Under the pieces are notes generated by a model. That model saw only the letters and a program-made list of their open reading frames with translations. It was not told where the DNA came from and did not search any database. Positions 281-13,523 of a stretch of DNA of 16,819 bases are shown here, in pieces (position 1 is the stretch's first letter; each line of letters begins with the position of its first letter). Where the stretch lies: assembly GCA_016933055.1 (NCBI GenBank), contig JAFGBS010000023.1, positions 1-16,819 on the forward strand. Direction: 5' to 3'. A program made the translations under genes and the position numbers. Source of the stretch: Promethearchaeota archaeon. Lineage in GTDB: Archaea > Asgardarchaeota > Lokiarchaeia > Sigyniarchaeales > Promethearchaeaceae.

Positions 281-1135
281 TTAGTAATAACATCCATAAG
301 CTTTATTCATACTCAGAATTTCTCTAACGATATTTTTATGAGCTTTAAAAGGATTGTTTACAGTTCGTTCACTGGTAGGTAATGGATTAAAAGGTAAATT
401 TTCTTTCATAGAAATTTCATTATAAGCGAAATTCAGTAAATATTCAAGATTTAGGACATCTTCAGCATTATAAGCAAGTAAAGTTTCAAGATATCTCTCA
501 TCTCTTGTTTTCCTATATTGATTCCACAGCAATACGGCATGATAACCATCAAGCTTACTCAAAATACCTCTTGAAAATCGAAATTGTTTCTCAATCGCTT
601 TTAATCCACCACTAAAACCAATTTTTTTTAGAAGAAAACAGACATCGAAATGTATTTGGGGCATCTCTATTCCCAAGTAGTTCCTAATGAAAGGGATATC
701 GAAACATTTACCATAGAAAGTGGCAATTGTAGGAAATTGTCCGATAAATCTCCTAAATTTTCTTAAATTTATTCCATCAACAAATGTATTAACTGTTTTT
801 CCATCAAATACTGCAATAGTGGTAATTTGAGAATTATTATAGGACAATCCGGTAGTTTCAATATCCAAGTATGCAATTCTGCCTTGGTAGTTTGGGATAG
901 CTCTCCATGTTAAATCTTTCGGGATTGTTTCATTAAGAGTTCTATAATCATTTCTTCTTAGTAACTTCTTATATTCATAGATATTTTCTCGTATTATCCG
1001 CCAAAGATTGTTTGATATCCCATTAGGACAATTTTTCATTTCAATGTCATCCCAAGATCTGATACCTAAATCCCAAAGAGATTTCTCTGTTTTTTCTCCG
1101 ATACCTCTTATAATTCGAAAGCTATTTTCAAGCAT
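281..1135 (-). CDS. RNase H-like DEDDy 3'-5' exonuclease (YprB/RNase_H_2-like) with N-terminal helix-hairpin-helix
   Basis: ExoI YLDIETTG, ExoII FYGKCFDIPF, ExoIII YNAEDV; N-terminal IRGIGEKTEKSLWDLGI HhH motif. The ATG (1133-1135) directly follows the helicase TAA (1136-1138). Confidence 0.88.
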   Translation of the reverse strand: MLENSFRIIRGIGEKTEKSLWDLGIRSWDDIEMKNCPNGISNNLWRIIRENIYEYKKLLRRNDYRTLNETIPKDLTWRAIPNYQGRIAYLDIETTGLSYNNSQITTIAVFDGKTVNTFVDGINLRKFRRFIGQFPTIATFYGKCFDIPFIRNYLGIEMPQIHFDVCFLLKKIGFSGGLKAIEKQFRFSRGILSKLDGYHAVLLWNQYRKTRDERYLETLLAYNAEDVLNLEYLLNFAYNEISMKENLPFNPLPTSERTVNNPFKAHKNIVREILSMNKAYGCYY

Positions 1136-3193
1136 TTAGAATTCATCCTCCACTTCCACTTCTTCATAAACTCCCGAATCGCAAATTTCTGTAAGGAAAC
1201 GAGATGGACCTTCGATTATATCACTCCTTCCATAATTATACGTGGGAAAAAACTGAGGATAGGTTAGAATTAAATGATCTTTTGCTCGAGTACAAGCGAC
1301 ATAAAAAAGTCTTCTTTCTTCCTCAATCTCGTCGGGATCTCCTATACTTTTCGAGATTGGCATTTGTCTCTCCACAAGAGTCATCACAAATACAATTTTC
1401 CATTCTAAACCTTTTGCTTGATGGATGGTGGACAATACTAATGGTTTTTCTTCATCTAGTTCGTTTCCAGCATTAATTGTTTGTCCTTCCAAATCATATT
1501 GAGTCAAAATATCTGCAAGAAAAGAATTCAAATTGCTATATGGTCTAATGAGATTTGTCATTTCTCTCAATTCCATTATTCTTTCTTCGGGGTTCTTATT
1601 TACATAATTTTGTTTTATTAATGGTTCTAAATAGTGGATGTTTTTTTCTGCAAGAAATTCCAAAGGTGGTAATTTATCAATTAGAAGAAATTTATAGGAA
1701 GAATTTGAATCCACTTCAAATATTGTATCTCGAAATAACTCTTGTAAATTTTTCAGATGGTCAATACCTTTTTTCATTACCCTTTTTCCTTTCAATACTT
1801 CTTCATAGTCGGTATTAACAAATTGCTCTAATTGATTGATATTATTTTCGAACCCTTCGATTACCTTTTGAGCACTCACTGGACTTAAACCTTCATGTAG
1901 AGAAATTAAACGCATCCATTGAATGATATCAGCGGGATTTGTGATCAAGATCAACGTTGAAAGAAAATCCTTTATATGACCTTTTTCAAAAAAACGGATT
2001 CCAGCACGAACTTCATAAGGAATATTGTGTCGATTAAGTTCTAATTCTAAAACTGAAGAATGAAAACCAGCACGGAATAACACAGCTTGTTCATGTAGAG
2101 GAATCCCTTCATCTCTAAATCGGAGTATTTCAGAACAAATTGCCGCGGCTTCTTGTTCTCGATCTCGGCAGGAAACGAGTGCAGGTAATTCCCCCCTTTC
2201 ACGAGACGTGAATAATGTCTTCTTAAATTGTTTCTTATTATGGTGTATACTTGCATTTGATAGCTTCAATATTTCAGGGGTGCTCCGATAATTTTCCTCT
2301 AATTTATATTCAGAATAATCAGGATATTTTTTGGGAAATTCTAACATATGAGTAAAATCGGCGCCTCGAAAACGATAGATTGCTTGCGCATCGTCTCCAA
2401 CAACTGTTAAGGATTTAGCTTCAGAAGCGAGTAAATCAATTATTTTTGATTGCACGGAATTTACATCTTGGTACTCATCTACGAGAACATGAGTAATTTT
2501 TTTCTTGTATGAATTTGATGCTGGTTCTTGAAGAAAAGCAAGGAAAAACAGTAATAAATCATCATAATCCAAAGTGTTATTCTGACGTTTCAAACCCTCA
2601 TATTCGTCAAAAATTGCCTTAATCACAGACAATTCTTCTAAATATTGGGGATAAAAGTTTTCTAATGCATCTTTGAGTTTCATTGCCCAATTGATTCTTC
2701 GGGAGTATAAATCTACAAGTTGAGAACTATTTGGGTATCTTTTTTCTTTCTTTTGTTCTTTTGAAACCTTTCTATTAAGTGCAATTTTCATTAATTGTAT
2801 TCGGTCGGATTCATCAAGTATGGAGAAATTATTTTTCAATTCAACTACTTTCGCGTATTTATGGAGAACCACATTAGCAAGATGGTGAAATGTGCCAGCT
2901 TGAATTCCCTTGATTTTAGTTCCAGATAATTTTTCCACACGTTCTATCATTTCTCGGGCAGCTTTTTTGGTAAATGTAACAAGGATAATCGATTCAGCAG
3001 GAACACCATTGTCAACTAGATAAGCAACCCGATACGTAAGAGCTCGAGTTTTTCCAGAACCAGCCCCCGCAATAATTAAAGCAGGACCTTTACCGTGTGT
3101 AACAGCCTTATACTGGCCTTCATTCAACTCTTTTCTATATCTTTCTTCCAGTTCAGATGATATAGGTTTCTTTATTAGGATCTTTCGTGTCAT
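1136..3193 (-). CDS. uvrD: UvrD/PcrA/Rep family SF1A ATP-dependent DNA helicase
   Basis: Canonical motifs present: AGAGSGKT (I), TFTKKAAREM (Ia), GTFH (Ib), LVDEYQD (II), VGDDAQAIYRFRGA (III), LEENYRS (IV), STIHQAKGLEW (V), EERRLFYVACTRAK (VI). SD-like GAGGAG upstream. Family call is firm; the exact orthologue (uvrD vs pcrA) is not resolved. Confidence 0.93.
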   Translation of the reverse strand: MTRKILIKKPISSELEERYRKELNEGQYKAVTHGKGPALIIAGAGSGKTRALTYRVAYLVDNGVPAESIILVTFTKKAAREMIERVEKLSGTKIKGIQAGTFHHLANVVLHKYAKVVELKNNFSILDESDRIQLMKIALNRKVSKEQKKEKRYPNSSQLVDLYSRRINWAMKLKDALENFYPQYLEELSVIKAIFDEYEGLKRQNNTLDYDDLLLFFLAFLQEPASNSYKKKITHVLVDEYQDVNSVQSKIIDLLASEAKSLTVVGDDAQAIYRFRGADFTHMLEFPKKYPDYSEYKLEENYRSTPEILKLSNASIHHNKKQFKKTLFTSRERGELPALVSCRDREQEAAAICSEILRFRDEGIPLHEQAVLFRAGFHSSVLELELNRHNIPYEVRAGIRFFEKGHIKDFLSTLILITNPADIIQWMRLISLHEGLSPVSAQKVIEGFENNINQLEQFVNTDYEEVLKGKRVMKKGIDHLKNLQELFRDTIFEVDSNSSYKFLLIDKLPPLEFLAEKNIHYLEPLIKQNYVNKNPEERIMELREMTNLIRPYSNLNSFLADILTQYDLEGQTINAGNELDEEKPLVLSTIHQAKGLEWKIVFVMTLVERQMPISKSIGDPDEIEEERRLFYVACTRAKDHLILTYPQFFPTYNYGRSDIIEGPSRFLTEICDSGVYEEVEVEDEF

Positions 3194-11273: not shown

Positions 11274-11761
11274 TACAAAATTGTCTTCTAATTGTTAAAC
11301 TTTTGAACTTTTAAAGCTTCGTATTCATCACTTAGCTTCCCGTTTAGTAAAATACGTGAGAGTTTATGAATGTCAAGAAGATAAAAAATGGGAGATAAAA
11401 CGATTTTTCGCTCATTATTATGAAACAAAATTATTTAATCTAAAATATCATTCAGATCAGAAAGTTCATCCATCATCATTACTTTCATTCAAACTTTATA
11501 TGCTTTACTCCAGTTTAACAAATTGAGAAAAAGGTTATGAGAAGAATGAATAAAACTCGAAATGATTGCATACCTACATCATTCAAAGGATCTTTCATAG
11601 GATTTAGCTATTTAGCTTAATCTCCATACTATTCTACTTTTCTCTTTCAATACTTTGTTCTCCAAATTAACCATCTGTAGTAGCCAATCTCCTAGTTATT
11701 TCAATTTTCTTTAAATATATAATTCGGATATATATAATTATAACACATATTAACCCCACAC

Positions 11762-11767
11762 GGAGGT
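11762..11767 (+). promoter_or_regulatory. Shine-Dalgarno of micro-ORF A
   Basis: GGAGGT 9 nt upstream of the ATG at 11777. Confidence 0.7.
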
Positions 11768-11776
11768 AAAAACACA

Positions 11777-11845
11777 ATGAACTCATATATGCTCGAAAAA
11801 CAAGTCGAACAAAAACTAAAGGAATCCCGAAATAGAAAATGGTAA
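11777..11845 (+). CDS. 22-aa small protein A (MNSYMLEKQVEQKLKESRNRKW)
   Basis: Strong SD; 11/22 identity without gaps to the ORF at 11986; same length; conserved 5' leader. Confidence 0.7.
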   Translation: MNSYMLEKQVEQKLKESRNRKW

Positions 11846-11985
11846 ATTCTTTCAACACAAAAGAATCCAACCCGCATTTCTCACTTTTTAGGAATATGCG
11901 AAAAATTGGTCTCAAAATCATATGAATATGAAACGCATCAATATCACCATATAATAAAAAAAACCTAACCCATGGAGATAAAAAA

Positions 11986-12054
11986 ATGAACGATTACATC
12001 ATTGAAAAAATTGCTGAATATAAACGAAACGAAATCCGAAAAACCAAGTGGTGA
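11986..12054 (+). CDS. 22-aa small protein B (MNDYIIEKIAEYKRNEIRKTKW)
   Basis: GGAGA at 11974-11978 upstream; paralogue of 11777-11845 with synonymous differences (Tyr TAT/TAC, Lys AAA/AAG, stop TAA/TGA). Confidence 0.7.
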   Translation: MNDYIIEKIAEYKRNEIRKTKW

Positions 12055-12070
12055 GATCGCCTTCCTATTC

Positions 12071-12100
12071 TGAAATCTTGAGACTTTACTCTAGATTTCA
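12071..12100 (+). terminator. Hairpin downstream of small protein B
   Basis: TGAAATCT (12071-78) pairs with AGATTTCA (12093-100), plus GAG/CTC, loop ACTTTA. No clear U-tract, so function is uncertain. Confidence 0.35.
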
Positions 12101-12180
12101 AATCTCAATACTCCGCAATCAATCTTTTACCATAATATAACAACCTCTTTTATCCACGATTTTATCCCTTTTGAGGAAAC

Positions 12181-12220
12181 GGGAGAGCTTATGGAACTCT
12201 CCCAATCCTTATTTTTTTCT
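12181..12220 (+). terminator. GC-rich hairpin followed by T-run
   Basis: GGGAGAG (12181-87) pairs with CTCTCCC (12197-203), followed by AATCCTTATTTTTTTCT. Confidence 0.45.
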
Positions 12221-12262
12221 GTATGCTTCAGGCTTAGAAAGTGTCAAGAGTCTTAGGTCTTA

Positions 12263-12304
12263 TTAAAAAACGAAAATTGGGATAGAATAACCACCATTCT
12301 TCCC
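12263..12304 (-). terminator. Terminator-like hairpin downstream of the helicase fragment
   Basis: Minus strand GGGAAGAAT-GGTGGTT-ATTCTATCCC (one bulge) followed by AATTTTCGTTTTTTAA, 12 nt after the stop at 12317. Confidence 0.45.
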
Positions 12305-12316
12305 GCTATTCCCGCA

Positions 12317-13141
12317 TTAAGGTATTTTCCCTTCTAATCTTCGTGAACTCTTTTCTGTCTCGTCTATCGTGTTGATAAAATGAAGTTCTTCATAGATTCT
12401 CTTGAATTTTTTCATCAACTCTTCAATAAGCGGATCAACTTTTACATCCTTCGTTTGAAGAAAGTCTTCATAATCATTCTTTTTTCCATATCTCCGGTAT
12501 TCTGAAGAAGTAACAAAAGCATTTCCTTCTTTTAGAATTTCAGGTAAAAATTTCTCGAAATACGTTTGAAAGAATACTTTTGTTTCCCTATCGTCGATAT
12601 AAGGAGGTAATTGGTTTTGATCCCCTACTATTACCCATTTCTTAGCCCTTGTTGCTGGAATTAGAAATTCCAAGACCGTAGCTTTACTTGATTCATCAAT
12701 GACCATTAAATCAAAATCCTCGATGTCGCGTTTCTCATCATAGATATATACAACACCAGTTGATGTGCCGCACACGAGATTACATGAATTGAGAAGCATA
12801 TCTTCAATCAAGTAAGGTTCACTTTCGATGTTCTCAATGAATTCGTTTTGAATTTGTTTCAGGGAACTCAATTCTACTCCCTTGAACTTAGTGAATTTTA
12901 GGACTTCCTTTTTTCTAATCCCATCAGATCCGAACTCAATCTCTCTTTTTTTTAATTCTTTGGTGCTTTTAACGAAATGAAACCAGTTACGTTTTCTTTC
13001 ATTGAGTGTATATTTCTTTACCTGGTATGAAAGGCGTCGAGCCCGTCCTATGCGAATTGCTTGAATAAAATTATCACTTTCCTCATCAAATCTTTCAAGA
13101 ATATTATCTAAAGAACTTGAAGTGATCAAAAAGAAAATCAA
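12317..13141 (-). pseudogene. Internal fragment of a Upf1/DNA2/NAM7-like SF1B helicase (AAA_11 part)
   Basis: LDNILERF (end of motif Ia), AIRIG, LVCGTSTG, Walker B LMVIDESSKA and motif III VIVGDQNQLPP are present. No Walker A and no C-terminal AAA_12 motifs (QYR, VDxFQG, NVA.TR). Confidence 0.78.
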
Positions 13142-13523
13142 AACTTCTGAGAAAAAACAGTCATCGGGAAAATCTAGAACAAGAAGGAGAAAATTAAATT
13201 TGGATTCAATTTCCCGATTAAATCGAGACGAACGACGCGTTTATGAACAATTACGACTCTGGCGAAATTCGCAAGCACGTAGAGAAAAAATTAGACCGTA
13301 TATTATTGCTCATAATACAGCGTTGATGGCGATTGTATACTATAAAGTGTCCAATATCGAGGAGCTAATGAGAATTTATGGATTTTCGGAACGTAAAGCG
13401 AACAAATATGGAAATGAGATTATTGAGATCATGAACCAGTATAAAATGGCTACTGGTATTATAGACCACACATTACACATAAACAACAACATTCCGGTTC
13501 CAATGCTTATCACCCCCCAATGA
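13122..13523 (+). CDS. HRDC domain-containing protein, possibly a 5'-truncated gene
   Basis: VYEQLRLWRNSQARREKIRPYIIAHNTALMAI...EELMRIYGFSERKANKYGNEIIEI matches the HRDC pattern of RecQ/RNase D. The GTG start overlaps the opposite-strand fragment and has no SD; the frame is open back to 13065. Confidence 0.75.
   Translation: MIKKKIKTSEKKQSSGKSRTRRRKLNLDSISRLNRDERRVYEQLRLWRNSQARREKIRPYIIAHNTALMAIVYYKVSNIEELMRIYGFSERKANKYGNEIIEIMNQYKMATGIIDHTLHINNNIPVPMLITPQ

Follow-up and report, generated by a model that had tools for sequence, protein, structure and literature searches.

Paralogous genes of about 20–25 codons that lie side by side and encode peptides without a signal peptide are found in the psm-alpha operon of Staphylococcus aureus and among multi-peptide leaderless bacteriocins, whose products are hydrophobic or strongly amphipathic and have dedicated exporters. 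In the archaeon Methanosarcina mazei, the 23-aa micro-protein sP26 is encoded by spRNA26, a short intergenic transcript of its own, and binds the large enzyme glutamine synthetase; its mRNA is leaderless and its gene is single-copy (bioRxiv 10.1101/2020.05.06.080432).

Here we analyzed a window of 16,819 nt, the complete contig C32 of a 3.76-Mb assembly (33% G+C; hereafter G000) of a Loki-type Asgard archaeon, in which a sequence-only reading had picked out two neighbouring 22-codon ORFs. Like sP26, the two encode soluble archaeal micro-proteins of about 22–23 residues, are intergenic, are kept together with their promoter and upstream region within one genus, and have been overlooked by standard annotation. 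Unlike sP26, they belong to a family with a predicted 35–40-nt leader bearing a Shine–Dalgarno (SD) sequence, with 4–5 copies per genome, a tandem layout and an upstream block of ~175 nt; the likeness to sP26 is one of description. The tandem genes share the side-by-side arrangement of ~20–25 codons without a signal peptide with the psm-alpha operon and the leaderless bacteriocins, from which they differ in that the peptides are highly charged and hydrophilic without a significant hydrophobic moment, no recurring transporter gene lies nearby, and each gene apparently has its own promoter. A lineage-restricted, unannotated micro-protein gene is already a known kind of thing; the family itself has no known relatives, and its block is unusual. 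Because proteins this short fall under the length cut-offs of standard gene callers, they are absent from Asgard annotations and protein databases.

Members and distribution of the micro-protein family

Gene A (11777..11845, plus strand; 22 codons and TAA) and gene B (11986..12054, plus strand; 22 codons and TGA) lie inside a gap of ~1040 nt that separates two minus-strand ORFs, and neither has an earlier in-frame start. Recounting from the translations reproduced the reported gapless alignment, in which 11 of the 22 residues are identical (M1, N2, Y4, E7, K8, E11, K13, E16, R18, K21 and W22), as well as the synonymous differences at Y4 (TAT/TAC), K21 (AAA/AAG) and the stop codons (TAA/TGA). 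The likeness of the two is far above chance: in an exhaustive profile scan covering the genome's 148,220 short open frames, five matches reached E values of 1e-12 to 1e-10, and the next lay at E=1.1.

The homologue search proposed along with the original observation yielded 13 further intact copies, bringing the family to at least 15 intact members, of which five lie in the window's own genome, four in G001 (Promethearchaeota MAG AMARA_1, the one congeneric genome), and six are spread over four metagenome contigs. A profile search placed the own-genome copies in the window pair, on contig C30 at 99794 (copy a) and 103480 (copy b), and on C28 at 132177-132245 on the minus strand, the last ending in Phe. 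Of the four G001 copies, two form a tandem pair on C44, and C145 and C58 hold one each. C66 of the same genome holds a degenerate member (17394-17456, minus strand; L036:2395-2457), which a TAA stop cuts to 12 codons and which suggests birth-and-death turnover of the family copies. The metagenome loci (L038, L039, L040 and L041, with tandem pairs on L039 and L040) were found by a degenerate pattern derived from the peptide, and all four loci returned were true members with the same upstream sequence; the second tandem copy on L039 came from a later profile scan of the four loci. Since their flanking proteins are 52–84% identical to the G000 and G001 counterparts, these contigs come from close relatives.

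The peptide pattern was also run over 185,579 species representatives, where its only hit was C44 of G001 (SDNX01000014.1, 'Promethearchaeota archaeon isolate AMARA_1'), and it gave no match in viral contigs. Across 400 genomes of the phylum, a profile search detected full-length matches in G000 and G001 only; the other 398 gave just short partial matches at E ~0.01, mostly within long ORFs. In the DNA searched, the family thus came up in a single genus of Loki-type Asgard archaea. No named family had been recognised in the peptides, which agrees with the databases searched: Pfam, NCBIfam and PDB returned no match to family peptides, and PHROGs and PADLOC only single weak matches to one member each (E ~0.01-0.02).

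Coding tests were run on a gapless alignment of 13 ORFs. Mean column entropies at codon positions 1, 2 and 3 are 0.57, 0.62 and 1.15 (permutation of columns, p=0.0005), and a Goldman–Yang codon model gave an omega of 0.098 (F1X4) or 0.084 (F3X4), with an lnL of -530.07 versus -569.88 when omega is fixed at 1 (2dlnL ~80). The constraint is spread along the peptide and is strongest at residues 1-12. For most pairs, pN/pS lies between 0.08 and 0.30; L039 and L041 differ by 8.5 synonymous and 3.5 non-synonymous changes on 11 and 55 sites, respectively. Gene B and its G001 counterpart differ by nine synonymous codon changes, a CGA/AGA exchange and a stop swap among them, and by four replacements (pN/pS 0.11). 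Gene A is looser than gene B, with a pN/pS of 0.62 against its G001 counterpart and 0.26 against that of L040. Both alternative frames are interrupted by stops in every copy, and between the window and G001 the ORFs contain no indels versus 13 gapped columns in leader and spacer.

Furthermore, 14 of the 15 intact copies have exactly 22 codons counted from the family-aligned ATG, including the A-type copies of the matching tandem pairs on G001 C44 and L040; in the G001 C58 copy, one codon is deleted and an extra N-terminal Met compensates. An additional in-frame Met directly 5' of the start occurs in two or three copies. The last residue is Trp, Phe or Tyr in every copy, and the stop site is constant though TAA, TGA and TAG all occur. 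An in-frame start further upstream, which would lengthen the ORF, is confined to the two C30 copies (one ATG, one TTG); it lies in a frame that crosses the TATA box and is closed in the other copies. We also considered whether the ORFs are the N-terminal remnant of a longer gene, which was ruled out since the six-frame genome has no longer paralogue. Taken together, these patterns make it very probable that the micro-ORFs are coding. The earlier suggestion of selection on the peptide rather than recent DNA duplication holds up well: omega is ~0.09, codon positions 1 and 2 have half the entropy of position 3, indels fall in the spacers and not in the ORFs, and the stop site is kept with three different stop codons.

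The control block and the tandem layout

Most family copies carry a conserved block of ~175 nt, which in the window, together with the 5' leader of gene A, spans 11603..11776 on the plus strand as defined by the alignment with the G001 module and by a 10-copy alignment. It is 75% identical to that of the orthologous G001 module, and identity drops to 36% further upstream. From its 5' end, the block comprises a distal box of the form TTAACC..TAGCT (11604-11620), a variable T-rich stretch, a middle box seen in the 10-copy alignment (11657-11676), a palindrome-like box (11681-11704) and, adjoining the latter, a TATA box TTTAAATA (11710..11717) that matches the archaeal consensus perfectly, lies 67 nt 5' of the ATG of gene A and is invariant or nearly so in all ten block copies. 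In these copies, the TATA box is followed by a second AT-rich box, a short variable leader and the SD. The consensus of the archaeal TATA box and its spacing at -26/-27 are well established. Given this spacing, the transcript is predicted to start near 11740, which would leave a leader of 35–40 nt.

As had been noted, both leaders contain an SD; the two sites lie 8–10 nt 5' of the ATG. That of gene A, GGAGGT at 11762..11767, is spaced 10 nt from the ATG and is kept in all block-bearing copies; that of gene B is the SD-like GGAGA at 11974..11978, with GGAGGT as its counterpart in G001, L040 and L039. In the genome as a whole, GGAGG is 4.5-fold enriched 5' of long ORFs with a spacing peak of 7–10 nt to the ATG, and the micro-genes, spaced at 9–10 nt, keep to the genome's preferred range. 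Downstream of the stop codon, 12 of 13 copies have a run of at least five T within 40 nt, compared with a chance rate of about one window in 7 by a rough estimate from 33% T, and the downstream sequence is otherwise unconserved; in gene A, the T5 run at 11885..11889 is a candidate oligo-T terminator by its position after the stop.

The block is better conserved than the ORF it precedes, with a mean column entropy of 0.53 versus 0.78 in the 10-copy alignment, and is devoid of 3-periodicity. RNAalifold, applied to block and leader, predicted no conserved pairing for the plus strand and, for the minus strand, eight pairs that lack covariation; with no Rfam match at the gathering threshold either, a structured RNA in the block was rejected. 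Likewise rejected was a 20-codon ORF that runs divergently on the block's minus strand and looks conserved in three copies: its ATG is ACG in L038 and L041, an early stop occurs and codon periodicity is lacking. Because the block is better conserved than the ORF, has no conserved RNA fold and does not keep the minus-strand mini-ORF, we read it as regulatory DNA probably bound by protein. A control region of at least 140 nt that is better conserved than its own ORF is unusual, and a plain promoter reading explains it only partly.

The block is a non-coding, unstructured and portable module. A search with nhmmer recovered exactly five copies of it in the window's own genome (E 1e-31 to 1e-45), the fifth of which, at C19:12764-12914 (L042:3765-3915), has no micro-ORF; the sequence 3' of it differs from the micro-genes and is ~95% conserved in G001, where the block is missing. 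This copy fits a portable promoter module. After the C19 block lies a stretch of ~170 nt (12945-13115) with 60% G+C in a 33% G+C genome and a predicted fold of -60.6 kcal/mol (z=-2.1), to which Rfam gave no match. It looks like a small insertion, since it is missing from the otherwise contiguous orthologous site in G001 (C3:3149-3205); a weak copy (71%) is present at C2:4768-4858.

A search with the boxes of the block returned a single extra exact match, of the distal box, at C11:95238-95254 on the minus strand. It has the consensus form of the 17-nt box (TTAACCATTTAGCTTAA) and is located near a TTTAAATA box ~150 nt 5' of a gene that starts at 95404 on the plus strand and encodes a 340-aa protein with bactofilin-like repeats and a C-terminal zinc ribbon. 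This copy may be a second target of the same putative regulator or a chance match. A regulon defined from the boxes was set aside, one extra exact match being too thin a basis.

In the tandem pairs on C32, G001 C44, L040 and L039, the same order recurs: full block, first gene, T-run, a conserved 42-nt element and the second gene. Between the window and G001 C44, the alignable part is limited to 11603-12054, at 72.7% over 468 columns, with unrelated genes on either side; conservation of the module starts at the distal box and stops exactly at the stop codon of gene B. The 42-nt element (11897..11938, plus strand), which has ATATGAATAT at 11920-11929 in the TATA position, is the best-conserved part of the module, above either ORF, with ~40 of 42 positions matching G001, and it also precedes the second gene on L040 and L039. 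At the same distance from the ATG, it resembles the block's proximal promoter in an abridged and diverged form; given this resemblance, each tandem gene probably has its own promoter.

The whole unit of ~250 nt is repeated at 71–91% DNA identity. On reading the unit ends in the multi-copy alignments (TTAACC...TAGCT box at the 5' end, stop codon and T-run at the 3' end), we noted no inverted termini or flanking direct repeats.

Genomic neighbourhoods

In the window, one ORF bordering the gap encodes a 1663-aa protein with an SBP_bac_5 domain of the oligopeptide-binding type and is divergent from the micro-gene module. The other (12317-13141, minus strand) is a 274-aa fragment of an AAA_11 helicase, in which the profile match spans only positions 64-254, and it overlaps an opposite-strand HRDC-domain ORF (13122-13523, plus strand) by 20 nt. 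We tested whether the module is an insertion into a truncated AAA_11 helicase and found no AAA_12 domain remnant anywhere in 11274-12316. The surroundings of the window's micro-genes look rearranged or decayed. At 281-3193 on the minus strand of this short 16.8-kb contig, an RNase_H_2-type nuclease gene (PF13482) lies directly 3' of a gene for a UvrD-type helicase, with the two ORFs meeting at 1135/1136, an arrangement known as a recurrent helicase–nuclease pair. Rfam, searched at E<=1, gave no match at the gathering threshold in the whole window and the related loci, the module included; a sub-threshold match to RF03531 (n00280, 'C. difficile sRNA included into helicase gene'; 43.9 bits versus a gathering score of 65.2) at 1252-1348 (minus strand), within the UvrD helicase gene, most likely reflects conserved helicase coding sequence.

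The family copies occupy about five kinds of locus. C30 copy a, G001 C44, L040 and L041 share a locus with trypsin-like/CARDB proteases and a DUF3276 (PUR-like) protein; C30 copy b and L039 adjoin a metallo-beta-lactamase/RMMBL protein; C28 and L038, the window, and G001 C145 represent the others, and an M23 peptidase occurs among the neighbours at other loci. Directly 5' of C30 copy a are three tandem trypsin-like CARDB proteases of 530–536 aa (L005:2533-7583; G000 C30:94532-99582), of which paralogues are present in G001 C44 (two) and L041 (one). A link to oligopeptide-binding proteins was considered and dropped, as the 530–580-aa neighbours are trypsin-like/CARDB proteases and not SBP_bac_5 proteins.

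An all-against-all comparison of 6 kb around every copy revealed no neighbour family common to all loci. Because of this and of the differing gene orders, we regard the micro-genes as stand-alone. The genes 3' of the copies vary by locus, and several are convergent, so that the constant same-strand downstream gene of a leader peptide or attenuator is lacking. Within the same 6 kb, no cognate receptor, regulator, exporter or transporter gene recurs beside the copies, as would be expected of RRNPP/SHP-type signals or leaderless bacteriocins. The recurring neighbour sets fit plain synteny of one ancestral locus.

Peptide properties and possible roles

The peptides are strongly hydrophilic, with a mean Eisenberg hydrophobicity of -0.3 to -0.56, 10–12 charged residues out of 22 and no hydrophobic stretch. 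They have a two-part design: residues 1-12 hold all hydrophobic and most acidic residues at a net charge of 0 to -2, and residues 13-22 are basic (+1 to +5, mostly +3 or +4) with an aromatic end. Whether computed for the whole peptide or for residues 1-12, the hydrophobic moment does not exceed that of shuffled sequences, of which a median fraction of 0.20 reaches the observed value. An amphipathic helix was therefore rejected, and a picture in which such a helix docks to a partner is unsupported, as is the earlier proposal that the peptides are single helices. In line with the earlier view of the peptides, their hydrophilicity sets them apart from type I toxins, which are hydrophobic and membrane-inserting. 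As conservation ends at the stop codon, there is no conserved antisense promoter downstream.

As in a stand-alone micro-protein gene, conservation at the amino-acid level (omega ~0.09, fixed length) is combined with expression signals of the gene's own (SD, TATA box, T-run). On balance, we lean towards the reading that genes A and B belong to a genus-restricted family of micro-protein genes that are each complete and independently expressed, with a peptide that binds a larger partner and paralogues that are co-regulated via the block. Each unit, of ~270 nt, would consist of a control region with an archaeal TATA box, a 35–40-nt leader with a strong SD, a 22-codon ORF and an oligo-T terminator, and its product would be a hydrophilic, cytosolic peptide of 22 residues with a fixed two-part design. 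By analogy with characterised soluble prokaryotic micro-proteins, this peptide may bind and modulate a larger partner, either a protein complex or, via its basic tail, nucleic acid. A putative DNA-binding regulator acting on the shared block would switch the paralogues on together.

The multi-copy, often tandem arrangement of genes of ~22 codons without a signal peptide would also suit leaderless export, by which the peptides would reach the exterior and serve there as signals, antimicrobials or surface-active agents, like leaderless bacteriocins, phenol-soluble modulins or SHP-type pheromones. Secreted or surface proteins are indeed frequent neighbours, namely the SBP_bac_5 protein of the window, the trypsin-like/CARDB proteases and the M23 peptidase; however, the neighbour sets vary by locus and their recurrences are consistent with plain synteny of a single ancestral locus, neither a transporter nor a cognate regulator gene is found repeatedly beside the copies, and the peptides are markedly hydrophilic and lack a significant hydrophobic moment, which together make export improbable. 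About equally improbable is a role of the RNA or of the act of translation, as in a dual-function small RNA or a regulatory mini-ORF of the nascent-peptide or leader type, with no role of its own for the released peptide. Such a role would account for the very short predicted transcript (~125 nt), for upstream DNA and leader being conserved above the ORF, and for the invariant aromatic residue right before the stop codon. Against it, an oligo-T run follows the stop, downstream genes are inconsistent and often convergent, and folding of the block and leader, as distinct from the ORF-containing transcript, revealed no conserved RNA structure; moreover, a stalling motif is expected at the C-terminal end, whereas the constraint runs along the peptide at an omega of ~0.09 and is strongest at residues 1-12.

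It is highly improbable that the ORFs have no function and are simply carried along by a repeated DNA element with a promoter, their likeness being due to copying or gene conversion and not to selection. The repetition of the entire ~250-nt unit at 71–91% DNA identity, the C19 block without an ORF and the degenerate C66 copy of G001 would all be expected of such an element, but synonymous changes far exceed non-synonymous ones between diverged copies (8.5 versus 3.5 for L039 and L041), length and stop site are kept in all intact copies, conservation ends exactly at the stop codon, and the unit ends, as read in the alignments, showed no terminal inverted repeats or target duplications.

The reading as independently expressed micro-protein genes can be carried further, to a regulon of micro-proteins specific to the genus. 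In it, a dedicated DNA-binding regulator would recognise the three boxes of the block, which could also be placed before other genes as in C19, and the co-induced peptides, first-gene and second-gene products paired by the tandem layout, would bind nucleic acid or a protein complex via their basic, aromatic-ended tail. We put this forward tentatively and consider it rather doubtful; if true, it would represent a new class of archaeal stoichiometric modulators.

Given that the family is confined to one uncultured genus, the wider significance is moderate. The databases that lack such proteins are those used to compare these relatives of eukaryotes. The family is a clean case with good statistical support, its fifteen copies being divergent enough to reveal purifying selection on a frame of 22 codons, and the well-delimited control region could be used to find the regulator. 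The family adds to the evidence that Asgard genomes hold many lineage-specific micro-protein genes.
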